Positions 163 to 53,839 of a DNA stretch of 64,000 bases are shown here, one piece after another. A program made the position numbers and the translations under genes. The notes under the pieces are model-generated. The model worked only from the letters and a program-made list of their open reading frames with translations. It was not told the DNA's origin and made no database searches. This DNA comes from Solirubrobacteraceae bacterium (lineage in GTDB: Bacteria; Actinomycetota; Thermoleophilia; Solirubrobacterales; Solirubrobacteraceae): the NCBI GenBank assembly GCA_025449845.1, contig JANWIP010000002.1, forward strand, positions 21,868 to 85,867, in the 5' to 3' direction. Position 1 is the first letter of the stretch; every line of letters begins with the position of its first letter.

Positions 163-409
163 CACACCCCCAGCGCCCAAGCAGACATACGAGGCCGCGG
201 CTGCACGCGTGGAGGAGATCATCCGCCGTCTGGACTCCGGCGAGGCCAGCCTGGGTGAGACGCTGGAGCTCGTGAAAGAGGGCAAGACGCTGATCGAATA
301 TTGCGCCGGCGAGCTTGAGGCTGTCGGGGGGGCGCTAGAGGAGATGCGCCTGGACGAGCTGGTGGCGCGTCTGGAACGCGATGCCGGCAGCGGCGGAGGC
401 AACCCGTGA
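149..409 (+). CDS. xseB: exodeoxyribonuclease VII small subunit
   Basis: ATG at 149. The sequence YEAAAARVEEIIRRLDSGEASLGETLELVKEGKTLIEYC is typical of XseB. The 32..409 ORF was trimmed to the internal ATG that overlaps the xseA stop. Confidence 0.85.
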   Translation: MTMTDTPPAPKQTYEAAAARVEEIIRRLDSGEASLGETLELVKEGKTLIEYCAGELEAVGGALEEMRLDELVARLERDAGSGGGNP

Positions 410-488
410 GCCGTAGGGCACTCGTGAGCCGTGGGCAACTCGTGAGCCGTGGGCAACTCATGAGCCGTGGGGGCAACTTGTGAGCACC
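396..488 (+). repeat. 18-bp tandem array (about 5 copies, GTGAGCCGTGGGCAACTC) spanning the xseB stop to the next gene's GTG start
   Basis: GTGA/ATGA motifs at 406, 424, 442, 460 and 480, with spacings 18, 18, 18 and 20. The first copy holds the xseB TGA (407-409). The last copy holds the GTG start at 480. Confidence 0.9.
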
Positions 489-7141: not shown

Positions 7142-7420
7142 TCAGCCCAATCCGTCGATCTCAGCCGCCAGCGCGAAGTCGGCTCCCGTGAGGCCTCCCT
7201 GCGAATGCGTGCTGAGCTCCAGGCGCACCTTGTTCCAGCCGTGCACGAGGATGTCGGGATGGTGGTTGGCCCGCTCGGCCAGCTCGGCGACGCGATTGAC
7301 GAAGACAATGGCCGCGGCGAAGTCAGCCAACTTCCACTCACGTACGATCGCCTCGCCCTCACGAGCCCAGTCGCTGTCCGCGAGCTGCTGCTCGATCTCC
7401 TCATCGCTCAGCCTGCTCAT
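7142..7420 (-). CDS. 4a-hydroxytetrahydrobiopterin (pterin-4-alpha-carbinolamine) dehydratase
   Basis: 92 aa. Contains FVNRVAELAERANHHPD..W..V..L.TH, the characteristic PCD motif. Confidence 0.85.
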   Translation of the reverse strand: MSRLSDEEIEQQLADSDWAREGEAIVREWKLADFAAAIVFVNRVAELAERANHHPDILVHGWNKVRLELSTHSQGGLTGADFALAAEIDGLG

Positions 7421-7498
7421 CCTCGAACCTCCTGCTCGCTCAACCTACTCATCACTCAATCTCCCAATCGTTTGCGCGCGGGCACTACATTCCGGGGT

Positions 7499-8398
7499 AT
7501 GCGCATCGTCAGCCTGGTCCCGCACGCCACGGAACTGCTGTTCGCGCTCGGCCTCGGAGACGAGGTTATCGCGGTGACGCACGAGTGCGACCACCCTACG
7601 CGAGCGTTGAAGCTGCGGCACGTGACGCGCGACATGCTTCCGCAGGGCCTGAGCGCGGCGGAGATCGACGCAGCGGTGCGCGAGCGCACGCTGAACGGCG
7701 GATCGATCTACGAGCTGGATGAGCAAGCTCTGCGCGCACTGAACCCCGACCTGATCGTCACACAGGCGCTCTGCCCGGTCTGCGCGGTCTCTCATACCGA
7801 GGTGGTTGAGCTGGCCAAGAGCATCCCCTCCCAGCCGCGCGTGCTGGCACTGGACCCCAAGACGCTTGGCGAGACGCTGGGTGACGTGCGCACCGTGGCA
7901 CAGGCCACCGACAGCCGCGACGCGGGCGTGGAGCTGATCGCCCGCATCGCGGGTCGCATCGACCGCGTCAAGCTGGCCGTGCGTGGCCGGCGACGCCCGC
8001 GCGTCGCGGCGCTGGAGTGGCTTGACCCGGTATTCGTGGCCGGCCACTGGACGCCTCAGCTGATCGACTTCGCCGGCGGCGAAGACGTGCTGGGGTTCGC
8101 GGGCGAACACTCGGAGGTGTTCACCTGGGAGGCGGTGGCGGCGGCGGAGCCTGAGATCGTCGTTGTGATGCCCTGCGGCTACGACGCCTCCCGGGCGCAC
8201 GAGGAGGCGATGACGTACGCCGAGCAGCTGGCTGGCCTGGGCGCGCGTCAGGTGGTGGCGGTCAACGCCTCGGCCTACTTCTCACGCCCCGGACCGCGGT
8301 TGGTCGATGGGCTTGAGCTGCTGGCGCACATCCTGCATCCCCAGGCCGTCGAGCAGGCCCCGGAGGAGGCGATCGCAGTCGAGCTGGTGAGCGTCTGA
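7499..8398 (+). CDS. BtuF/FhuD-like (cobalamin or Fe-siderophore type) substrate-binding protein with no obvious signal peptide
   Basis: The internal ATG at 7499 gives MRIVSLVPHATELLFALGLGDEVIAVTHECDHP, typical of the helical-backbone binding-protein family. The upstream part of the 7205 ORF overlaps the opposite-strand gene. Confidence 0.65.
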   Translation: MRIVSLVPHATELLFALGLGDEVIAVTHECDHPTRALKLRHVTRDMLPQGLSAAEIDAAVRERTLNGGSIYELDEQALRALNPDLIVTQALCPVCAVSHTEVVELAKSIPSQPRVLALDPKTLGETLGDVRTVAQATDSRDAGVELIARIAGRIDRVKLAVRGRRRPRVAALEWLDPVFVAGHWTPQLIDFAGGEDVLGFAGEHSEVFTWEAVAAAEPEIVVVMPCGYDASRAHEEAMTYAEQLAGLGARQVVAVNASAYFSRPGPRLVDGLELLAHILHPQAVEQAPEEAIAVELVSV

Positions 8399-12615: not shown

Positions 12616-12689
12616 AGCCGGCGACCGGACTCGAACCGAGCAACCCCCGCTTTACAAGAGCGGTGCTCTACCAATTGAGCTACGCCGGC
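12616..12689 (-). tRNA. tRNA-Thr (anticodon UGU)
   Basis: Reverse complement: GCCGGCGTAGCTCAATTGGTAGAGCACCGCTCTTGTAAAGCGGGGGTTGCTCGGTTCGAGTCCGGTCGCCGGCT. It has a 7-bp acceptor stem, a CT-TGT-AA anticodon loop and a GGTTCGAGTCC T-arm. No CCA is encoded. Confidence 0.9.
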
Positions 12690-17474: not shown

Positions 17475-18211
17475 GCTGATGGCTCAGCGCGAACGGCGCG
17501 ACGGTCGGGAAACGCGAGCACGACTCCCGCCGGATCCATCGAACGCAATTCCCCGTTTGAAATGGACATGCTCCGGCGTGCACCGGCGAGCGCCTCAAGA
17601 TCCTCGGAGGCGACGAGCACGGCGAGCTTGCTGTCGTTGGCAAGCGAGCGCAGCAGTGCGTAGAGCTCCCCACACTCCAGTGGGCTGGGAGAGACGGCGG
17701 GCTCGTCGATCAGCAAGAGGCGCGGCTCCCGGACGATCGCCCGCGCCAGCGCGACCCGTATGCGCTCCCCCTGCGAAAGTCTGCCGGTCCACACGTCCGC
17801 GCATTCTCCGGCACCCACTTTTTCCAGGGCGCGCCGCGCCAGAGGCCGTGCCTCGCGCAGACTGATGCGATCGCCCAACAGCGGCATGGCGACGCTGTCC
17901 ACCGCGGGTTGACTGAGCTGGGGGCGCCAGTCTCCCGAGACGTGCGCGATGCCGTGCGCGCGCAGCAGTCGGGCGCGCTCATTGGCCCCCATGCTCGTGA
18001 GTACGTGACCGTCAAAGCAGACCGCCCCGGCATTGGGCGCCTCAATGCCGGCCGCGACACGCAGCAAGGTGGTCTTGCCGGAGCGCCGAGGTCCCCAAAC
18101 GCCGACGAAATCGCCGGCATCCACTTCCATGCACACCCGGTCGAGGACCGCGACCTCCCGTCGCCCGTCCCCGTAGCGTCTGGTCACCTGGGTGAGCGAA
18201 AGAAGGGTCAT
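17471..18211 (-). CDS. ABC-type ATP-binding protein with degenerate D-loop and H-loop
   Basis: Walker A GPRRSGKTT, signature LSQGERIRVALARAI and Walker B LLLIDEP. The D-loop is AVSPSP instead of TxxLD, and the H-loop position reads VLVASEDLE with no His. Confidence 0.8.
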   Translation of the reverse strand: MTLLSLTQVTRRYGDGRREVAVLDRVCMEVDAGDFVGVWGPRRSGKTTLLRVAAGIEAPNAGAVCFDGHVLTSMGANERARLLRAHGIAHVSGDWRPQLSQPAVDSVAMPLLGDRISLREARPLARRALEKVGAGECADVWTGRLSQGERIRVALARAIVREPRLLLIDEPAVSPSPLECGELYALLRSLANDSKLAVLVASEDLEALAGARRSMSISNGELRSMDPAGVVLAFPDRRAVRAEPSA

Positions 18212-18242
18212 GGCCGCGGGAGCGTCATCTCATCACGCGACA

Positions 18243-18821
18243 CTAGGACGGCGTTGCTACCTCGGAGATCAGGCGGCGGGCAAGCACGATCCATTCGAGC
18301 TCGGCGCGCAGATGCAGGCGTGCCGAGGCACGGGAGAGATGCATGGCGATGCCCGCGAAGGAGCGCAGCAGTGGCGCGTCCTGCGAGCTGGCGTTGAACA
18401 GGGCGAAGCACTCGCGCTCGTAGGCATCCAAGGCCGCCAGCAGACGCGGCGCGTCAGGCGCACGGGCGACGGCAATCTTGGCCTGGAACTCCGCACGAAC
18501 AGGGGCCATGCGCGTACTCGCACTCATCCACTCGGTCAGGGCGGGCTCGGCAAGCAGAGTCGGAGAGTAGACCCGCCGATTCCCAGTAGGTCCATCACTC
18601 AAGACCCGTCGCGAGGAGACCAGGCCCGCCCGCTCAAGCTGTTCGAGCATGCGGTAGAGGTCTTTAGCGGTTATCTGCCACGCGGGCCCGAGGCGCCGAT
18701 CGAGACGATTCGCCAGGTCGTAACCGTGTCCTGGTCGTTGCAGCACGAGGCCCAGCAGTGCCCCCTTCAAAGGCGAGCTGCCTCGCATCCAGTCCCTGTT
18801 TCCGGCGCTTACGGCTTCCAT
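18243..18821 (-). CDS. PadR-family transcriptional regulator
   Basis: The winged-helix segment LKGALLGLVLQRPGHGYDLANRL......ITAKDLYRMLEQLERAGLVSS is typical of PadR. It is the first gene of the ABC/DUF2600 operon. Confidence 0.8.
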   Translation of the reverse strand: MEAVSAGNRDWMRGSSPLKGALLGLVLQRPGHGYDLANRLDRRLGPAWQITAKDLYRMLEQLERAGLVSSRRVLSDGPTGNRRVYSPTLLAEPALTEWMSASTRMAPVRAEFQAKIAVARAPDAPRLLAALDAYERECFALFNASSQDAPLLRSFAGIAMHLSRASARLHLRAELEWIVLARRLISEVATPS

Positions 18822-18985
18822 TGCGTGTACGGCTCCTGATTCGCTGAATGGAACAGTACCTTACATCGACACGAGTTGCGAAATGGATGCCTTCAAGTAG
18901 CTGGAGCTTTGGCAGTCACAGTCGAGCGTTCCTGTCAAGCTGGTCTTTGCCCTACAGCCCTTTGCGTCAGTTCGAACGCCTTCGT

Positions 18986-19057
18986 CTGCGCATCGAGCAG
19001 CCTGTTCGCCTACGCATCTCGAAGCCTGTTCGCCTACGCATCGAGCAGCCCGATCTC
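18986..19057 (-). repeat. 3 x 24-bp tandem duplication of the LuxR-gene 3' end including its stop codon
   Basis: Plus-strand copies at 18986-19009, 19010-19033 and 19034-19057. The true TAG is at 19034-19036, a second in-frame TAG is at 19010-19012, and the third copy has CAG. Confidence 0.9.
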
Positions 19058-24410: not shown

Positions 24411-26270
24411 TCAGCGCCGGGGAAGTCTTTTTAAGGGGACTCCCGGAGGGAGTCCTGGGTTGGCCGCGTTGTGCGGGGAAGCCAATGGGCGGTGCACGTC
24501 AGGGCGTTGCCCGCTGCTATCGGTGTGTTCCTGCGGACCTATGGGCGGACGCGGACCCGAAAGCGGATGCGGACCTAAAGGCGGATGGGGACCCAAAGGC
24601 GGATTGGGACTCGAAGGCGGATTAGGATCCCCTACGGCCTGCGATACGTCGCCGAGGTCTTCCTGCGTGCCCGACCGAGGGCTGCAGTTGCCGCCGCCAC
24701 GTGACCCGCGGCCAGCGCTTGCGGAAGAGCTTGAATGCGGAGGGTCTACGGCGCTGCCACTCACACCCCCGGTGTGTTCACGAGAGGGCCGGGGCAGGCG
24801 GCGAACAGCCGCACGAGCGGAGCGCAGTGCAGAGGCGGAAGCTGGAGAGGTGACGCGCTGGGAATGGCCGAGAACGCCGTGCACCGTGTGTTCGAGGAGA
24901 CCGCCGACTTCGTGGACGACGGTGCCTACTGGACCGGTGGTCTGCGAAGTGGAGCCACCGGAAGGGGGAGGCGGAGAGCTGCCTTCTGATGCTCCGCCGG
25001 ATCCTTCCGCGCCTGCGCCACTGCCACCACCCGTGGAGCCGCCCCCCGATCCCCCGCTACTGCCGCTACCACCACCAGATGCAGGTTCCTGCGAACCGCC
25101 GCCCGTAGAGCCGCCGCTCGATGAACCACCCGAGCCGCCGGAGGAGCCTGGGGGTGGAGCACCGGAACCCGGAGCGGAGCTCGACGGCGGGGGCTGACTC
25201 GAGGACGCGGGAACCTGAACGGTGTAGCTCGTAGGAGTGGTGCCCTTGGGGACCATCGCCGCGAAGTGATGCGGGAAGACCGCCGATATGCGATGCGAAG
25301 TACTCGGGGCCACCGCTGTGACTTGCAGGCGTATAGGCCTGTCATGGTGAGCAAGCTGCCGGGCAGGAGCGTGCCCAGAGGAGATACCGACCCCAATACT
25401 CGCGGGAGAGCCGGCGGCGGGCACGCCACCCCCACTGGGAGCGCCAACGCCGGCGGTCTCGTGCCCGGCCCCGCCGGCAACGGAGTGAGCGTGGCGATGG
25501 ACAGAGGAGCCGGAATGCACGATGACGGTGCCGGTGATGACAGTGCCCGCAGTGAGTGCGGCAAGACCACCAGCCGCAAGCGAGCCCTTGACCAGCAGGC
25601 CGCCCAGCCCGAGGCCCCCGCCGGCGGCCAGTTCGCCGACGCGTTCGGCGCCGATGCCCTGGCCAGAGCCGGCCATCCAGGTGAGCAGCGGCGGAGGGGT
25701 GAGCGCGGTGATGGCGGTACGCAAGGTGGCGCGAGCGCGGTAGAGAAGTCCCCTGACAGCACCGTCGCTGATGCCCAGCGCGGTGGCAACCTCTTCGTGG
25801 CTGTGGCCAGCGAGAGCGGTGCGGAAGATGACCTCGCGTTGCATCTGCGGGAGCGCTGCCATGTCGGTGACGGCCTCGCGCAAGGCGAGACCGCCGGCCA
25901 GGTCGGAGTCGACCGCGGCGGTCTCGGCGAAGTTCAGGTCATCCAGATCGACGGCGAGGTTCGAGCCATCGCGGGCGGCGTCGCGGGCGATGTTCACGGC
26001 GGTGTTGTGGGCAATGCGGTAGAGCCAAGGCCGCAGCTCGCGCACCTGCGCGCCGCGGCGCAAGGCGGACCAGGCCTGTAGGAGCGACTGCTGGACGACG
26101 TCTTCGGCGCGGTTCTCGGAGACGGAGATGCGCCAGCAGTAGCGCAAGAGCGGCCGGCGATAGCGCTGGACGAGCGCCTCGAAGGCGCGATCGTGCCCCG
26201 CGCGGGCCATTGCGGCAAGCCGCTCGTCGGACTGCGTGGCCAGCAGGCGGGTGGATGCCTTGGGACTCAT
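24411..26270 (-). CDS. ECF-type sigma factor fused to a transmembrane segment and a long Gly/Ser/Pro-rich C-terminal extension
   Basis: Residues 1 to about 200 carry sigma regions 2 and 4 (DVVQQSLLQAWSAL, RPWLYRIAHNTAVN, LPQMQREVIFRTALAGHSHEEVATALGISDGAVRGLLYRAR). These are followed by a hydrophobic segment (GGLAALTAGTVITGTVIV) and about 380 aa of low complexity. Confidence 0.8.
   Translation of the reverse strand: MSPKASTRLLATQSDERLAAMARAGHDRAFEALVQRYRRPLLRYCWRISVSENRAEDVVQQSLLQAWSALRRGAQVRELRPWLYRIAHNTAVNIARDAARDGSNLAVDLDDLNFAETAAVDSDLAGGLALREAVTDMAALPQMQREVIFRTALAGHSHEEVATALGISDGAVRGLLYRARATLRTAITALTPPPLLTWMAGSGQGIGAERVGELAAGGGLGLGGLLVKGSLAAGGLAALTAGTVITGTVIVHSGSSVHRHAHSVAGGAGHETAGVGAPSGGGVPAAGSPASIGVGISSGHAPARQLAHHDRPIRLQVTAVAPSTSHRISAVFPHHFAAMVPKGTTPTSYTVQVPASSSQPPPSSSAPGSGAPPPGSSGGSGGSSSGGSTGGGSQEPASGGGSGSSGGSGGGSTGGGSGAGAEGSGGASEGSSPPPPSGGSTSQTTGPVGTVVHEVGGLLEHTVHGVLGHSQRVTSPASASALRSARAAVRRLPRPSREHTGGVSGSAVDPPHSSSSASAGRGSRGGGNCSPRSGTQEDLGDVSQAVGDPNPPSSPNPPLGPHPPLGPHPLSGPRPPIGPQEHTDSSGQRPDVHRPLASPHNAANPGLPPGVPLKRLPRR
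24537..24626 (-). repeat. 5 x 18-bp in-frame minisatellite encoding P-[NHR]-P-[PL]-x-G hexapeptides near the sigma-fusion C-terminus
   Basis: Plus-strand copies begin at 24537, 24555, 24573, 24591 and 24609 (ACCYAAAGGCGGATGSGG). Confidence 0.9.
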
Positions 26271-29179: not shown

Positions 29180-29884
29180 TCAAGACCTCGCGGAGCGATT
29201 CTGCAATATCTCGTACAAGACGGCCGCGGCAGCGGCGCTGACGCCGAGCGATTCGATGCGTCCTCGCAAGGGCAGCGATATGAGCGCATCGCAAGAAGCA
29301 GCCACGCGCGGCCGCAGGCCTTGCCCCTCGCTGCCAAGCACCAGCACGACGCCCCCGCGGTAGTCAGGCTGCTCGTAAGTCATTGTGGCGCCCTCAGCGC
29401 TCGCCCCATAGCACCAACATTGCGCCGCGCGGGCCTGGGCGAGGAAGTCGGCGACATTGCGAACGCGCGCGACGCGCAGATGCTCGACGGCTCCTGCGGA
29501 GGCTTTGCACACCGCAGGCGTGACCTCAGCGGCGCGGCGCTCGGGTATCACCACGCCGCTGGCGCCGACGCACTCGGCGGTACGACAGATCGATCCGAGG
29601 TTCTGCGGGTCCTGCACCTGGTCGAGTGCCACCACCAGCGGCTCCTCTCCGCTGAGCAGTTCCTCGGCGGAAACGTAGGGGTAGGAGCCGGCATCAGCGC
29701 AGATCCCCTGATGGGCGCCCGAGCCACAACGACGCTCCAGCTCCTCGGCCTGCACCACCCGCACCCGCACATCCTTCAGCCAGGGCTCGCGCGCAGCGCC
29801 CTGCGTCGCCCAGACCTCTCCCACTGCGTGCGCGCGGCGTCCGCGCAGCGCCTCATGGACGGGGTTACGGCCGTAGAGGATCAC
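29180..29884 (-). CDS. rlmB: 23S rRNA (guanosine-2'-O)-methyltransferase, TrmH/SpoU family
   Basis: SpoU motifs (LDQVQDPQNLGSICRTA, LVLGSEGQGL, ISLPLRGRIESLGVSAAAAAVLYE). 4-nt overlap with cysS. Confidence 0.85.
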   Translation of the reverse strand: MILYGRNPVHEALRGRRAHAVGEVWATQGAAREPWLKDVRVRVVQAEELERRCGSGAHQGICADAGSYPYVSAEELLSGEEPLVVALDQVQDPQNLGSICRTAECVGASGVVIPERRAAEVTPAVCKASAGAVEHLRVARVRNVADFLAQARAAQCWCYGASAEGATMTYEQPDYRGGVVLVLGSEGQGLRPRVAASCDALISLPLRGRIESLGVSAAAAAVLYEILQNRSARS

Positions 29885-31275
29885 AGCGGTAGCAGTTCAA
29901 AGCCGGCCGCGCCGTCGCGGACCTCCCAGCCGAGCGCAGCGATCTCATCACGCAAGCGATCGGCGGTGGCGAAGTCGCGCTGCTCGCGCGCATGGTCACG
30001 CTGCGCCGCCAGTTCGCGTACCTGCTCCGGAGCGTCGGCTACCGGAGCCAGTAGCGACTCGAGACCGAGGACACCGAGCATTTCGCGCAGATGCGAGTCG
30101 CCTGTACCAAGGTGCTGGTCGCCTGTAACCAGGTGCGAGTCGCCTGGAGCATTTCCGCCGGCCAAAGCGATGGCCTCGCGCAGCCACTCATTGAGCACGG
30201 CCAGCGCCTCAGCGGTATTGAAGTCACGGGCAAGAACAGCGAAGAAGCGATCGCGCACCCCGTCGAGAGCAGCGGGGGAATCGCCCTCGGTCAACCTGCG
30301 TGCAGCCTCGCGGATGCGGCCCACATTCGCACGCGCCTGCTCCAGAGCAGCCTCGGAGAAGGCCAGTGGCTGGCGATAGTGCCCGCCGATGAGGTACATC
30401 ACGACGGACTCGGCACCGTAGCCCTCGATGACCTCGTGCAGCAGAGCGATGTTGCCGACCGACTTGGCCATCTTCTCGCCGGTGGACTGAATCATGCCGT
30501 TGTGCACCCACAGCCCCGCCAGTTCGTGCCCGCGCGCGGCGCGGGTCTGGGCTGCCTCGTTCTCATGGTGGGGAAAGACGAGATCCGAGCCGCCACCGTG
30601 GACGTCAAAGCCAACGCCAAGCAGGCTCTCGGCCATCGCCGAGCACTCGATGTGCCAGCCGGGTCGGCCCGGCCCCCAAGGCGACTCCCAGAAAGTGTCC
30701 TCTCCCTGCTTGTGCGCCTTCCAGAGGGCGAAGTCCAGCGGGTCCTGCTTGCGGTCAGAGCCCTCGACGCCCTCACCCTGGTCCATGTCCTCGATGCGAC
30801 GATGCGAGAGGGAGCCATAGCCATCGTCAGAGCGCACGCGAAAGAACACATCGCCCCCGCTCTCGTAGGCGTGCTCCTTGTCGATGAGCGTCTGGATGTA
30901 GTCGATGATCGGCCCCATCGTCTCCGCCGCGAGCGGCTCGTGGTCGGGCCGGCCGAGGCCTAGGGCGCCTGTGTCGGAGAAGTAGGCATCGGTCATCTCG
31001 CGCGCCAACTGCTCGCTAGCCACGCCGGCGTTGCGCGCGGCGACGTAGATCTTGTCATTGACGTCGGTGACGTTCACCACCAGTGTCACCTGATAGCCCT
31101 CGTGCTCCAGAAAGCGCTTCATCAGGCTGAAGATCACAAACGGGCGGGCGTTACCGATGTGGATGCGGCTGTAGACCGTAGGCCCGCAGGCGTAGATGCC
31201 GACCCGCCCGGGGTCGCGGGGCTTCAGCGGCAACAGCCCGCCCGAGCGGGTGTCGTGCAGACGAATCTCGCGCAT
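29881..31275 (-). CDS. cysS: cysteine--tRNA ligase
   Basis: HIGH (CGPTVYSRIHIGNAR) and KMSKS (KMAKSVGN) motifs. ATG at 31275. The 586-aa extension overlapping ispF was rejected. Confidence 0.93.
   Translation of the reverse strand: MREIRLHDTRSGGLLPLKPRDPGRVGIYACGPTVYSRIHIGNARPFVIFSLMKRFLEHEGYQVTLVVNVTDVNDKIYVAARNAGVASEQLAREMTDAYFSDTGALGLGRPDHEPLAAETMGPIIDYIQTLIDKEHAYESGGDVFFRVRSDDGYGSLSHRRIEDMDQGEGVEGSDRKQDPLDFALWKAHKQGEDTFWESPWGPGRPGWHIECSAMAESLLGVGFDVHGGGSDLVFPHHENEAAQTRAARGHELAGLWVHNGMIQSTGEKMAKSVGNIALLHEVIEGYGAESVVMYLIGGHYRQPLAFSEAALEQARANVGRIREAARRLTEGDSPAALDGVRDRFFAVLARDFNTAEALAVLNEWLREAIALAGGNAPGDSHLVTGDQHLGTGDSHLREMLGVLGLESLLAPVADAPEQVRELAAQRDHAREQRDFATADRLRDEIAALGWEVRDGAAGFELLPL
30088..30150 (-). 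repeat. 3 x 21-bp in-frame repeat inside cysS encoding GDSHLVT-GDQHLGT-GDSHL
   Basis: Plus-strand copies at 30088-30108, 30109-30129 and 30130-30150. Confidence 0.9.
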
Positions 31276-31303: not shown

Positions 31304-31780
31304 TCAGCGACTGCGCAAGCTGGCGGTGGCAAGCGCGGCGACGCCCTCGCCGCGACCGATGAAGCCCATGCCCTCGCCGGTGGTGGCCTTGATGTTGACG
31401 CGGGCGGGCGCAAGACCCAGCGCCCGGGCGAGTGCCTCACGGATCGCCTGCTTGTGCGGAGCGAGCTTGGGCCGCTCCATGATGACGGTGCAGTCCACGT
31501 TGACGATCTCAAGCCCGGCAGCGATGACAGTGGTGACAACCGTCTCCAGCAAGGCCAGCGAATCGGCGTCTCGGTAGCGCTCATCGGTGTCGGGGAAGTG
31601 CTCGCCGATGTCTCCGAGCCCGGCTCCGCCGAGCAGGGCATCGATCAAGGCGTGGATCAACACATCGGCGTCGGAGTGCCCATCCAGACCGCGCTCGTAG
31701 GGAATCTCCACGCCACCCAGGATGAGCTTGCGCCCAGGGACAAAGCGATGGCAGTCATAGCCAATGCCGGCGAGGCTCAC
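31304..31780 (-). CDS. ispF: 2-C-methyl-D-erythritol 2,4-cyclodiphosphate synthase
   Basis: [21 protein letters not shown] and the overall length (158 aa). GTG start at 31780. Confidence 0.93.
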
Positions 31781-31880
31781 AGCACACCAGCCCCGCTCAC
31801 AGCATCAGCCCTGCTCACATCAGCCCTGCTCACAGCATCCCTGCTCACAGCACCAGCCCCACTCACAGCACACCAGCCCC
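31777..31880 (-). repeat. 6-copy 15-20-bp tandem array (..GGGCTGRTGCTGTGAGC..) spanning the PHP-gene stop to the ispF GTG start
   Basis: Minus-strand GTGA motifs begin at 31866, 31848, 31833, 31818, 31800 and 31780, with spacings 18, 15, 15, 18 and 20. The first contains the PHP TGA. The last contains the ispF GTG. Confidence 0.9.
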
Positions 31881-32702
31881 AATCGGCTCCGAGCGCCGCT
31901 GACGATGCTCGAAGACGCATAGCTCCCCCACCCCGAGGCTCGCCAAGAGCTCGAGCGCCTGCTCGTAGTCGGCGCCGATGTCCTCGGGGCGGTGGGCGTC
32001 ACTGGAGAGCGCCACGGGGCAGCCGGCTTCCAGGCACATCTCAAGCAAGGCGGGTGCAGGGTAGATCTCCTGCGCGCGCTTGCGCAAGCCGGCAGTGGAG
32101 ACCTCGATGGCGATGCCCGACTCGGCGATGCCATCCATCGCAAGCTCGTAGTAGCGACGCAGATCGCCTTCGGGCAAGGGCCGCTCAACACCCCAAACCT
32201 TCACGAGGTCGGGGTGGGCGAGGATGTCGAACAGGCCCGAGCGCGCAGCCTCCCCCAGCGTCTGGAAGTAGCGCCGCCAGATGTCCTCGGCGCCGCGTGT
32301 CGATGCCCACACGCTCCAGTCCTCCATGTCCAGAGATTGATCGCGGAGAAAGTGAACGGAGCCCACGACATAGTCGAAGTCGCGGGACTGGAGCAGATTC
32401 GCGGTGCGATCCTCGGCGCCCCGCACGAAGTCGGCCTCGATGCCCAGCCGCAGATCGGTGTCCTCCCGCACGAAGCGGCAGTAGTCATCGAGATCGTCAT
32501 GTGCATATTCACGCCACAGGGGATGCTGCCACACCTCTAAGGCCTGGCGGAAGCGATAGATGTGCTCGGACACCCCCAGCTCTCCGATCTCCCGTTTCTC
32601 CGCGGCTTCGCGATAGCGCTCGGCGTTGGCAGCGGTGAAGTGCTCATCCGCGGTGGCGGCGAGGTCATCGGGGCGCAGATGCGTGTGGTAATCGGTGAGC
32701 AT
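31863..32702 (-). CDS. PHP-family histidinol-phosphatase-like protein
   Basis: The N-terminal MLTDYHTHL plus later SVHF, ILAHPD and LSSDAH motifs are characteristic of HisJ/HisK-type PHP phosphatases. Confidence 0.8.
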   Translation of the reverse strand: MLTDYHTHLRPDDLAATADEHFTAANAERYREAAEKREIGELGVSEHIYRFRQALEVWQHPLWREYAHDDLDDYCRFVREDTDLRLGIEADFVRGAEDRTANLLQSRDFDYVVGSVHFLRDQSLDMEDWSVWASTRGAEDIWRRYFQTLGEAARSGLFDILAHPDLVKVWGVERPLPEGDLRRYYELAMDGIAESGIAIEVSTAGLRKRAQEIYPAPALLEMCLEAGCPVALSSDAHRPEDIGADYEQALELLASLGVGELCVFEHRQRRSEPIGAGVL

Positions 32703-32721
32703 TGGTTCTCGGGGAGCCGAT

Positions 32722-33477
32722 TCAAGCAGGCGGAGCCGCCGGCTGGCCGGCGCGCTGGGCGATCAGCATTTCAGCAAGCGCAAGATCGAGCGGGGTTGTC
32801 ACTTTGAGATTCTCACGCGGAGCCGGCACGACTACGACGATCCCGCCAGCACGCTCGATCAGCCAAGCGTCGTCAGTGGCTTGGGCAAGCACATCATCGG
32901 GAACGTCAAGTGCCCGCTCCAGCGCGCCGCGGCGGAAGACCTGCGGCGTCTGCACGGCCCACAGGCTTGAGCGCTCAAGCGTCTCGGTGACCACGCGATC
33001 GGCGCCGGCACGCTTGACCGTGTCCGTGACGGGGGCCGCCGCAATAGCGCCATCGACGCCATCGCGGGAAGCAGCCGCAAGTGTGTCCTCGATCAACGCC
33101 GCGCTGAGCAGCGGCCGCGCGGCATCATGAACCAGCACCAGGTCCGAGTCCTCTCCATCGACAACGGCAAGCGCCAGGCGCACCGACTCCGAGCGCACCG
33201 CCCCACCCTCGGCGACGATCACTTTGCCCGCATCTACATCCACGCCCGCATCGATATCCACGCCCGCAGCGGCACCGCTACCTACGCCAAGCGCCACCTG
33301 CTCTTCATCGACCCCAGGCGGCAGCGCCACAACGATGCGCTCGATCGCACCCACGCCGCGCAGCGCGTCAAGGCTCCACTGAAGCAGCGGCCTACCCGCC
33401 AACTCGACGAGCGCCTTGGGACGCGTAGCCCCCAGGCGCTCGCCGCGTCCGGCGGCGAGAATCAGCGCAACAGCCAA
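32722..33477 (-). CDS. ispD: 2-C-methyl-D-erythritol 4-phosphate cytidylyltransferase
   Basis: ILAAGRGERLG..PKALVELAGRPLL, VLVHDAARP and VQTPQVF motifs. Confidence 0.9.
   Translation of the reverse strand: MAVALILAAGRGERLGATRPKALVELAGRPLLQWSLDALRGVGAIERIVVALPPGVDEEQVALGVGSGAAAGVDIDAGVDVDAGKVIVAEGGAVRSESVRLALAVVDGEDSDLVLVHDAARPLLSAALIEDTLAAASRDGVDGAIAAAPVTDTVKRAGADRVVTETLERSSLWAVQTPQVFRRGALERALDVPDDVLAQATDDAWLIERAGGIVVVVPAPRENLKVTTPLDLALAEMLIAQRAGQPAAPPA
33227..33280 (-). repeat. 18-bp in-frame repeat (2 good copies plus 1 degenerate) inside ispD encoding GVDIDA-GVDVDA
   Basis: Plus-strand CCCGCATCTACATCCACG at 33227-33244 and CCCGCATCGATATCCACG at 33245-33262, with a degenerate copy to 33280. 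Confidence 0.85.
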
Positions 33478-35290: not shown

Positions 35291-35384
35291 TTAGGCAGGG
35301 CTATGCCGCGGCGCGCGGCCGAGCGCTCTCCGCAAGGTAGGCAGGGCTACGCCGCAGCGCGCGGGCGAGCGCGGTCCGCAAAGG
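35291..35384 (-). repeat. 2 x 47-bp tandem duplication of the radA 3' end including its TAG stop
   Basis: Plus-strand copies at 35291-35337 and 35338-35384. The second copy carries the last 12 codons and the TAG (35347-35349) of radA. The first copy carries a paralogous ATAG. Confidence 0.85.
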
Positions 35385-43470: not shown

Positions 43471-43560
43471 GACGGGAACCGCTCCGCGGAAGGACGGGGA
43501 ACCGCTCCGCGGAAGGACGGGGAACCGCTCCGCGGGGGAAGGGCTCCGCTTCGCTCCGCC
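43471..43560. repeat. 22-23-bp tandem repeat x3 plus a degenerate tail (GACGGGGAACCGCTCCGCGGAAG) between coaX and dusB
   Basis: Copies at 43471-43492, 43493-43515 and 43516-43541. Each contains the palindrome TCCGCGGA. Confidence 0.85.
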
Positions 43561-51974: not shown

Positions 51975-52082
51975 TTTTGCCAGCAAGACACGCCGCTATT
52001 TTGCCCGCAAGACACGCCGCTATTTTGCCAGCAAGACACGCCGCTAGACGGCTACTGCTTTTGCGGACAAGCTACGCCGCTA
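51975..52082. repeat. 24-bp direct repeats (TTTTGCCAGCAAGACACGCCGCTA): 3 near-perfect copies plus 1 degenerate copy, just upstream of the MMPL promoter
   Basis: Copies at 51975-51998, 51999-52022 and 52023-52046, with a degenerate copy at 52059-82. Confidence 0.9.
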
Positions 52083-53593: not shown

Positions 53594-53707
53594 ACAACGT
53601 CAATACCATCGCACACAAACTTTAAAACAAAGACCCCCAACCCCCGCCTTTATCTTCCCTTTAGCCTCCGCGCTGGGCCTGGCTCCCCCATGCTGACCTC
53701 CGCTCCG

Positions 53708-53831
53708 CCTCCATCTCTGCCTTCTCGCCACCTCCATCCCTACCGTCGCGCCTCCATCCCTACCGTCGCGCCTCCATCCCTGCCGTCGCTCCGCCTCCAT
53801 CCCTGCCGTCGCGCCCCTCCATACTGCCGCG
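53708..53831. repeat. 20/23-bp tandem repeat, about 6 copies (CCTCCATCCCTACCGTCGCG), between the ftsH stop and folP start
   Basis: Copies begin at 53708 (degenerate), 53731, 53751, 53771, 53794 and 53814 (degenerate). Confidence 0.9.
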
Positions 53832-53839
53832 CCGCGCAC

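Follow-up and report, generated by a model that had tools for sequence, protein, structure and literature searches.

A junction-derived tandem array bridging a PHP-domain phosphatase gene and ispF in a Solirubrobacteraceae bacterium, and the reading frame of expanded gene overlaps in Solirubrobacterales

Translational coupling of adjacent genes via 4-nt overlaps is very common, and its selective importance has mostly been shown by engineered reporters in two species. Coupling at overlaps of the ATGA type operates by termination-reinitiation (Huber et al. 2019, PMC6728339), and it was almost lost in both species tested when about 20 nt between the genes were left untranslated (Huber et al. 2023, PMC10666635). 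For the mycobacterial interspersed repetitive units (MIRU; Supply et al. 1997, Mol Microbiol 26:991), as they are presented in PMC12548453, the principle that a repeat can bridge two genes has already been proposed. In Yersinia pestis, VNTRs overlap start or stop codons at 16 of 88 loci (PMC3689786). The array described here lies between the gene of a PHP-domain phosphatase (PHP) and ispF. Like MIRUs, its closest precedent as described in that source, it consists of tandem direct repeats between co-directional genes of an operon, and the ends of its ORF overlap the flanking stop and start codons (-4), here by GTGA at both ends of 31866-31777. A literature search on Actinobacteria and Thermoleophilia found nothing specific on junction-derived arrays of this type.

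Anatomy of the PHP-ispF junction and other window junctions

The window, i.e. the whole stretch of 64,000 nt from a Solirubrobacteraceae bacterium that was analysed, has a G+C content of 66% and carries the gene string carD-ispD-PHP-ispF-cysS-rlmB, in which IspD and CysS were also confirmed by Pfam and the spacer between PHP and ispF is filled by the array. The relevant features are:

31863..32702, minus strand: PHP-domain phosphatase gene, 279 aa (ORF, Pfam PF02811, same call in public assemblies)
31775..31880, minus strand: tandem array of six units, A-B-C-D-E-A'
31880-31861, minus strand: unit A, GGGGCTGGTGTGCTGTGAGT, 20 nt
31860-31843, minus strand: unit B, GGGGCTGGTGCTGTGAGC, 18 nt
31842-31828, minus strand: unit C, AGGGATGCTGTGAGC, 15 nt
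31827-31813, minus strand: unit D, AGGGCTGATGTGAGC, 15 nt
31812-31795, minus strand: unit E, AGGGCTGATGCTGTGAGC, 18 nt
31794-31775, minus strand: unit A', GGGGCTGGTGTGCTGTGAGC, 20 nt, bearing the ispF start
31863..31866, minus strand: first GTGA, PHP stop TGA (31865-31863) overlapped by the bridge start GTG (31866-31864)
31777..31866, minus strand: bridge mini-ORF, 29 codons plus stop, 90 nt
31777..31780, minus strand: last GTGA, bridge stop TGA (31779-31777) overlapped by the ispF start GTG (31780-31778)
31304..31780, minus strand: ispF (2-C-methyl-D-erythritol 2,4-cyclodiphosphate synthase), 158 aa (IspF/YgbB, Pfam PF02542, 3e-67)

On re-examination, the minus-strand GTGA motifs starting at 31866, 31848, 31833, 31818, 31800 and 31780, with spacings 18-15-15-18-20, proved to be exactly as reported in the initial annotation, and the 29-codon mini-ORF that it had drawn from the PHP stop to the ispF start was confirmed with a GTGA overlap at either end. 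Tandem Repeats Finder detected the array independently at 31775-31874 (periods 15 and 33, scores 97 and 108), and with 5.6 head-to-tail copies of period 15-18 (score 97-108) it has the structure of a minisatellite or VNTR. The final six codons of PHP (GAGVL and stop) form the first array unit, i.e. unit A encodes the C-terminus of the PHP protein (…PIGAGVL), and each of the first five units has a TGA in the PHP frame. The first and last units, A and A', share 19 of their 20 bases and correspond to the junction that relative L001 has in unexpanded form, while unit B equals A without TG, and units C and D equal E without one CTG. The GTG at 31780 is the earliest start codon of the ispF ORF, and public assemblies call the same gene. 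Since four independent assemblies of the population (NCBI MAG GCA_036554315.1, JGI metagenome 3300035176 and two Logan SRA assemblies) carry the array base-for-base identically, an assembly artefact was ruled out; no copy-number polymorphism within the window population was seen among these four.

Three other junctions of the window are of interest:

396..488, plus strand: sister array of like design, xseB stop at GTGA 406, downstream 349-aa gene from GTG 480
18208..18243, minus strand: third bridge, non-repetitive, mini-ORF VSRDEMTLPRP (11 codons) and stop
29881..29884, minus strand: unexpanded GTGA overlap of cysS and rlmB, same operon as the PHP-ispF array

The sister array has [AG]TGA at 406, 424, 442, 460 and 480, hence spacings of 18, 18, 18 and 20, and the parallel that had been drawn between the two arrays, with 3n internal units and a terminal unit of 20 nt, holds. 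Its mini-ORF (406-483) reads VSRRALVSRGQLVSRGQLMSRGGNL up to the stop codon and joins the stop of xseB (Pfam PF02609) to the GTG of the 349-aa gene; GTGAGC is the sole sequence common to the two arrays. The third bridge leads from the stop of a PadR regulator gene (TAGTG, 1-nt overlap) to the start of an ABC ATPase gene (ATGA, 4-nt overlap), and the cysS/rlmB overlap shows the ancestral state of such junctions. In the relay test applied throughout, an ORF was followed only where its start shares 4 or 1 nt with the stop before it, and the chain must enter the downstream gene in frame. By this test ispF is reached from PHP in two steps, and besides the two arrays 18208-18243 is the only spaced junction of the window that passes.

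Some further observations were made in the window. An upstream ORF of 12 codons (7417-7455, minus strand), VMSRLSEQEVRG followed by stop, precedes the gene of a pterin-4a-carbinolamine dehydratase (7145-7420, minus strand); it is a diverged 32-nt (3n+2) copy of the 5' end of that gene (MSRLSDEE…), and its TGA overlaps the real ATG (ATGA). Because the neighbouring gene upstream points the other way, we class this as a coupled uORF that arose by duplication of a start region and not as a gene-gene bridge. In-frame tandem repeats occur in cysS (30092-30146, minus strand; 21 nt x 2.6, GDSHLVT/GDQHLGT/GDSHL) and in ispD (33226-33268, minus strand; 18 nt x 2.4, GVDIDA/GVDVDA), i.e. 3n repeats inside genes are tolerated by this genome. 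Six more intergenic tandem arrays with units of 18-46 nt (53705-53833, located between ftsH and folP, 43474-43549, 51975-52046, 24532-24622, 35292-35381 and 18981-19050) lie in ordinary long spacers and form no relay chains; one of them is 100% identical across 2.7 copies. Finally, the PHP gene is placed between ispD and ispF (window 31863-33477, L001-L080), and in the majority of 80 Solirubrobacterales genomes it shares 4 or 1 nt with ispF; the arrangement may point to a functional connection to the MEP pathway.

Local origin and allele series of the array

A scan for orthologs with one genome per species identified 80 loci, all from Solirubrobacterales/Thermoleophilia, and PHP and ispF overlap directly in 49 of the 71 scorable ones. 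In the closest relative, L001 (PHP identity 97%, DNA identity 91-95%), the junction …ATTGGGGCTGGTGTGCTGTGAGCCTCGCCGGC… is a bare GTGA overlap with flanks as in the window, hence the window carries a clean 86-bp insertion of junction copies. The array represents a lineage-specific expansion, by 86 bp, of the ancestral GTGA overlap. A dispersed repeat or mobile element was considered and rejected; in the window the unit matches its own array only, apart from one match at chance level.

The allele series was taken from the 90%-identity IspF cluster, in which the relatives are 8-10% diverged in DNA (peptides are given up to the stop codon):

Window: GTGA spacings 18-15-15-18-20, insert 86 nt, bridge peptide of 29 residues
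L169: GTGA spacings 18-18-18-20, insert 74 nt, bridge peptide of 25 residues
L166: GTGA spacings 27-20, insert 47 nt, bridge peptide VSWAVVRCAVNWAGVL
L170: GTGA spacings 9-11, insert 20 nt, bridge peptide VRGVSAL
L001, L171, L172: no array, insert 0, no bridge

The inserts of the four array-bearing alleles are all 2 mod 3, each is composed of 3n internal spacings and one terminal spacing of 3n+2, and all are bridged. The series is the most direct support for the rule of 3n internal and 3n+2 terminal units, and the copy number differs among lineages (86, 74, 47, 20 and 0 nt), as it does in a VNTR. In an NJ tree of low resolution, lineages with and without array are intermingled, and the PHP-ispF junction is accordingly a dynamic hotspot at which the array either arose once and was then precisely lost or arose repeatedly. 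For the sister array at 396-488 no such series was obtained, the 90% cluster containing the same strain only, and no microhomology was seen by eye at the borders of the initial 20-nt duplication at PHP-ispF.

Such variability might suggest an expression rheostat or contingency locus, at which gain and loss of units tunes the IspF:PHP ratio, extra steps or extra length costing ribosomes. The interleaving of these alleles among little-diverged lineages would fit, as would the occurrence of both chained and merged designs (see below), but the window population shows no polymorphism across its four assemblies, no allele turns the gene off, and the resolution of the NJ tree is low. We therefore regard a rheostat as very unlikely. 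Even less credit is due to a function of the bridge as a micropeptide, or of the array as structured RNA, G-quadruplex or protein-binding iteron. The ORF is indeed open, and six G-tracts recur at intervals of 15-20 nt. However, the peptides are fragments of the PHP C-terminus that are wholly different between lineages and absent from L001, and a functional peptide was rejected for this lack of conservation. The array folds ordinarily (z = -1.32; 20 of 200 shuffles fold equally well), so that a stable RNA structure was rejected as well. The loops of 11-16 nt between the G-tracts are long for a stable quadruplex, and neither a promoter-like nor a terminator-like site was found between PHP and ispF on the minus strand. 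A known RNA family was likewise rejected, since the sole Rfam match in the window is a tRNA at 12616-12689, with no family at the array.

In relatives, many tandem arrays start exactly at the stop codon of an upstream gene, for example 13 nt x 11 in L021 (1394-1536), and others at L007 2300-2424, at L013 4337-4499 and in L063, L099, L111, L012/L069 and L077. This suggests either that duplications spanning gene ends are those which survive or that gene ends are prone to slippage in this order.

Reading frame of expanded junctions across Solirubrobacterales

The initial annotation had taken the 3n indels of the array as a sign that the bridge frame is under selection. The indels of a single array could not settle this, because one array holds only about three or four such events, and independent insertions elsewhere were examined instead; the resulting comparative tests (three junctions, controls and the alleles given above) support the claim. 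The comparative set comprised three normally overlapping junctions (PHP-ispF, xseB-349aa and cysS-rlmB) from about 170 Solirubrobacterales loci, with carD-ispD, ispD-PHP and ispF-cysS, which belong to the same operon and are not normally overlapped, as controls. The gap must be 1 mod 3 for a bridge whose start and stop both overlap the flanking genes.

At PHP-ispF, the insertions in other lineages are unrelated and measure 8 to 242 nt, and 13 of the 14 gaps longer than 9 nt are 1 mod 3. Bridges such as MSFEAGVR in L013 and VSARSERCS in L017, each followed by stop, are apparent by eye, and non-repetitive bridge ORFs of 26 and 33 codons occur in L008/L016 and L030. The sole exception in length, L024, has 5 x 26 nt, each unit being an ORF of its own (MSLAGIGVR and stop) that runs from one ATGA to the next. 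In L051, L054 and L056, a real gene of the CxC-rich GFA family is inserted between PHP and ispF with 4-nt overlaps on both sides. The xseB-349aa junction (70 metagenome loci) overlaps directly in 47 loci, and in all 12 of 12 expanded junctions an ORF begins at the xseB stop and either terminates on the start codon of the 349-aa gene or continues in frame into it; among them L104 has a chain of three 47-nt mini-ORFs. Direct overlap is also the rule at cysS-rlmB (35 of 45 loci), where L002 shows a fresh 20-nt duplication of the junction (VIELLPL and stop) and L078 a chain of 20+11+11 nt.

Relay success at spacers longer than 6 nt was as follows:

PHP-ispF: 14/15
xseB-349aa: 12/12
cysS-rlmB: 4/6
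these three junctions after deletion of 1 nt in silico: 3/33
control carD-ispD: 0/45
control ispD-PHP: 5/40
control ispF-cysS: 2/40

Taken together, 30 of 33 spacers pass at overlapping junctions versus 7 of 125 at controls. The incompatible frame class amounts to 3 of 46 overlapped junctions versus 55 of 146 controls (Fisher p = 3e-5), counts that include some orthologous and hence non-independent spacers (L008/L016 and a group of 8-nt spacers) and some small gaps whose class of 'in-frame extension' may merely reflect differences in N-terminal length. The controls show no frame preference, with mod-3 classes 0/1/2 of 15/19/8, 20/13/19 and 20/21/11. Since the spacers are mostly unrelated in sequence, with only L008/L016 and the 8-nt group resembling each other, the expansion events are regarded as independent. 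The exceptions comprise L026 (cysS-rlmB, 60 nt), which overshoots out of frame, L064 and L024 (cysS-rlmB), which have CTG in place of the overlapping start, and L034, L060 and L076 with gaps of 2-5 nt and no overlapping start. The first tblastn-based calls of the xseB junction mis-assigned several loci (large negative gaps), and a survey based on gene calls recovered L140 and L152 as bridges; the gene caller is a crude one, with errors in carD and in the start of the gene near 7500, and it was used for the junction surveys only.

The initial annotation had also proposed to survey comparable arrays. Among the tandem repeats at co-directional junctions in 160 loci plus the window, all 13 of 13 junction-filling arrays pass the relay test, whereas 0 of 24 arrays located within ordinary spacers (about 70-390 nt) do so; the new cases were inspected by eye. 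Two designs are compatible with the relay, either a chain of 3n+2 units with a mini-ORF each (L024, L104, L078), or merged 3n units with a 3n+2 terminal one. The rule of 3n internal units plus a 3n+2 terminal unit, as formulated for the window, is thus obeyed by the near-relative alleles but describes only one of the two. In addition, in L113 (1071-1290) XseB has an N-terminal extension that includes (GGQPHA) x 8; the in-frame array behind it has 18-nt units and begins at the ATGA overlap with xseA, so that here a junction array has resulted in an 'in-frame extension'.

Part of the frame pattern is of mutational origin. Short direct repeats across a 4-nt overlap are mostly spaced 3n+2, because the downstream frame is shifted by -1 and codon periodicity is strong; at 106 unexpanded junctions, 50-56% of microhomology pairs (k of at least 4-6) and 68% (k of at least 7) have this spacing, and about 27% fall into the incompatible class. 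A fresh 3n+2 duplication then makes a bridge automatically, and mutation by itself should account for roughly half of the 3n+2 bias seen in fresh duplications. Hence, the array might be a neutral minisatellite, slippage noise whose open frame follows from junction duplication without any selection, in a clade with many arrays that start at the end of a gene, be it followed by another gene or not, and with a closest relative that lacks it. However, the incompatible class (3/46) remains depleted against the mutation-biased null of 27.5% (p = 4e-4), and the excess of bridges among junction-filling arrays (12/13) survives it as well (p = 0.005), while control junctions of the same genomes have no frame bias. 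Furthermore, old non-repetitive spacers of 44-242 nt in L004, L008, L021, L030, L090, L103 and L107 retain both overlaps and an open frame, and the four diverged near-relative alleles are all bridged; both observations argue for maintenance, as far as comparison of genomes can reveal it. Neutrality is thus unlikely in our view. More generally, codon-phase bias could mimic selection in any argument that is based on indel lengths at gene junctions, which calls for caution.

Proposed mechanism and comparison with known systems

We favour, with a probability of roughly 65%, the reading that the array is a by-product of replication slippage whose frame is filtered by selection to keep termination-reinitiation coupling. 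It would then be a tolerated by-product with a policed frame and not a device that evolved for the relay. In this scenario, a segment of about 20 nt spanning the ancestral overlap of PHP stop and ispF start (GGGGCTGGTGTGCTGTGAGC) would have been tandemly duplicated. Duplications spanning a 4-nt overlap are viable because both genes stay intact, and each copy brings along a start and a stop codon in its GTGA. Subsequent remodelling would have involved one 2-nt and two 3-nt deletions as well as further gains of units. Ribosomes ending PHP could resume translation at the GTG that overlaps its stop, translate all 29 codons of the bridge, stop at the TGA overlapping the ispF GTG and restart there. 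Two steps of termination-reinitiation would take the place of one, as in the relay of ribosomes to ispF with which the initial annotation had considered the array consistent. Given that about 20 nt without translation suffice to suppress coupling almost completely, the 82-nt gap in the window would uncouple ispF unless it is translated. Variants in which restarted ribosomes would cross the ispF start in another frame, or would leave a long stretch untranslated, would lose coupling or occlude the start and be purged. In both window arrays 20-nt units became 18-nt units by a 2-nt deletion (TG at PHP-ispF, GG at 396-488); such deletions would merge mini-ORFs and lower the number of reinitiation steps, which may be the reason why they were favoured. 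The array itself confers nothing essential and is dispensable, given its absence from L001.

A G-run in every unit pairs with a generic anti-SD sequence, which was assumed and not taken from this genome, at -8.6 kcal/mol (window median -4.45). It could act as a weak Shine-Dalgarno sequence, which fits assisted reinitiation and also allows independent initiation of ispF. Selection might accordingly act against occlusion only, if ispF initiates by itself on the G-run and GTG of the last unit, the frame merely prevents overshoot and the bridge delivers no ribosomes. The predicted duplexes of ispF and of the 349-aa gene (-8.4 kcal/mol) are indeed stronger than the lower quartile of the window (-6.2), and only the overshooting class is depleted whereas the 'bridge' and 'in-frame extension' classes are both tolerated. 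Against this, the run contains no canonical GGAG or GAGG motif, the strength of the duplex depends on that assumed anti-SD sequence, and relatives without array have the same G-run within the PHP coding sequence. Moreover, exact 4-nt overlaps are strongly preferred at both ends of the spacers, as reinitiation needs, whereas escape from occlusion would demand less. We consider avoidance of occlusion alone to be quite improbable, and prefer slippage with a frame kept by coupling.

The junction arrays represent natural insertion experiments that were repeated many times in an uncultured order. Where overlaps have been pushed apart by 8 to 242 nt, the survivors almost always retain an unbroken chain of overlapping frames, which provides natural, albeit indirect, population-genetic evidence suggesting that selection acts on the hand-over of ribosomes here. 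The arrays further show that a MIRU-like bridging design can arise without a mobile element, and that small ORFs, presumably translated, can be born by duplication of a junction. For annotation, where such spacers might be called non-coding, the practical rule is a spacing of 3n or 3n+2 and never net 3n+1. As a speculation that we rate as unlikely, overlapped junctions of Thermoleophilia, and conceivably those of further bacteria with a high G+C content, might be hotspots where duplication keeps producing new translated mini-ORFs, with the number and merging of units as an evolvable dial of the downstream:upstream protein ratio, because each reinitiation step loses ribosomes. If true, nature would possess in such a dial a self-generating equivalent of the tuning elements used in synthetic bicistronic constructs, and small ORFs could arise de novo by this route.

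With regard to known systems, the overlaps are the same 4-nt and 1-nt stop/start overlaps as in coupling at ATGA, GTGA or TGATG (PMC6728339, PMC10666635), and the unexpanded junctions of relatives are textbook cases. PHP/bridge and bridge/ispF each overlap by GTGA, as coupled gene pairs do; in contrast to plain overlap coupling, at least two overlaps are placed in series via a non-genic mini-ORF, which spans 20-242 nt that would otherwise uncouple the genes. The mini-ORF also resembles ribosome-delivering short upstream ORFs and the synthetic 'bicistronic design' (PMC12548453), in which a functionless short ORF ends on the start codon of the gene that it serves. Those are usually fed by a ribosome-binding site of their own at the 5' end, whereas the mini-ORF here would be fed by reinitiation from the upstream gene and was born by duplication. 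[quoted passage not shown] MIRUs, as summarised in PMC12548453, are dispersed and apparently mobile, with a consensus found at many loci, while the units here are unique to their junction and absent elsewhere in the window. They are made from the sequence of the junction itself, i.e. the upstream C-terminus and the downstream N-terminus, and the arrays of relatives are built likewise. MIRU units are reportedly about 40-100 bp long, whereas those described here measure 15-20 nt, and 9-47 nt in relatives. The host also differs, belonging to Thermoleophilia and not to Mycobacterium. Collectively, the arrays work like MIRUs but are not MIRUs, and they represent a variant within the MIRU-like bridging principle that is built from locally generated units of 9-47 nt.
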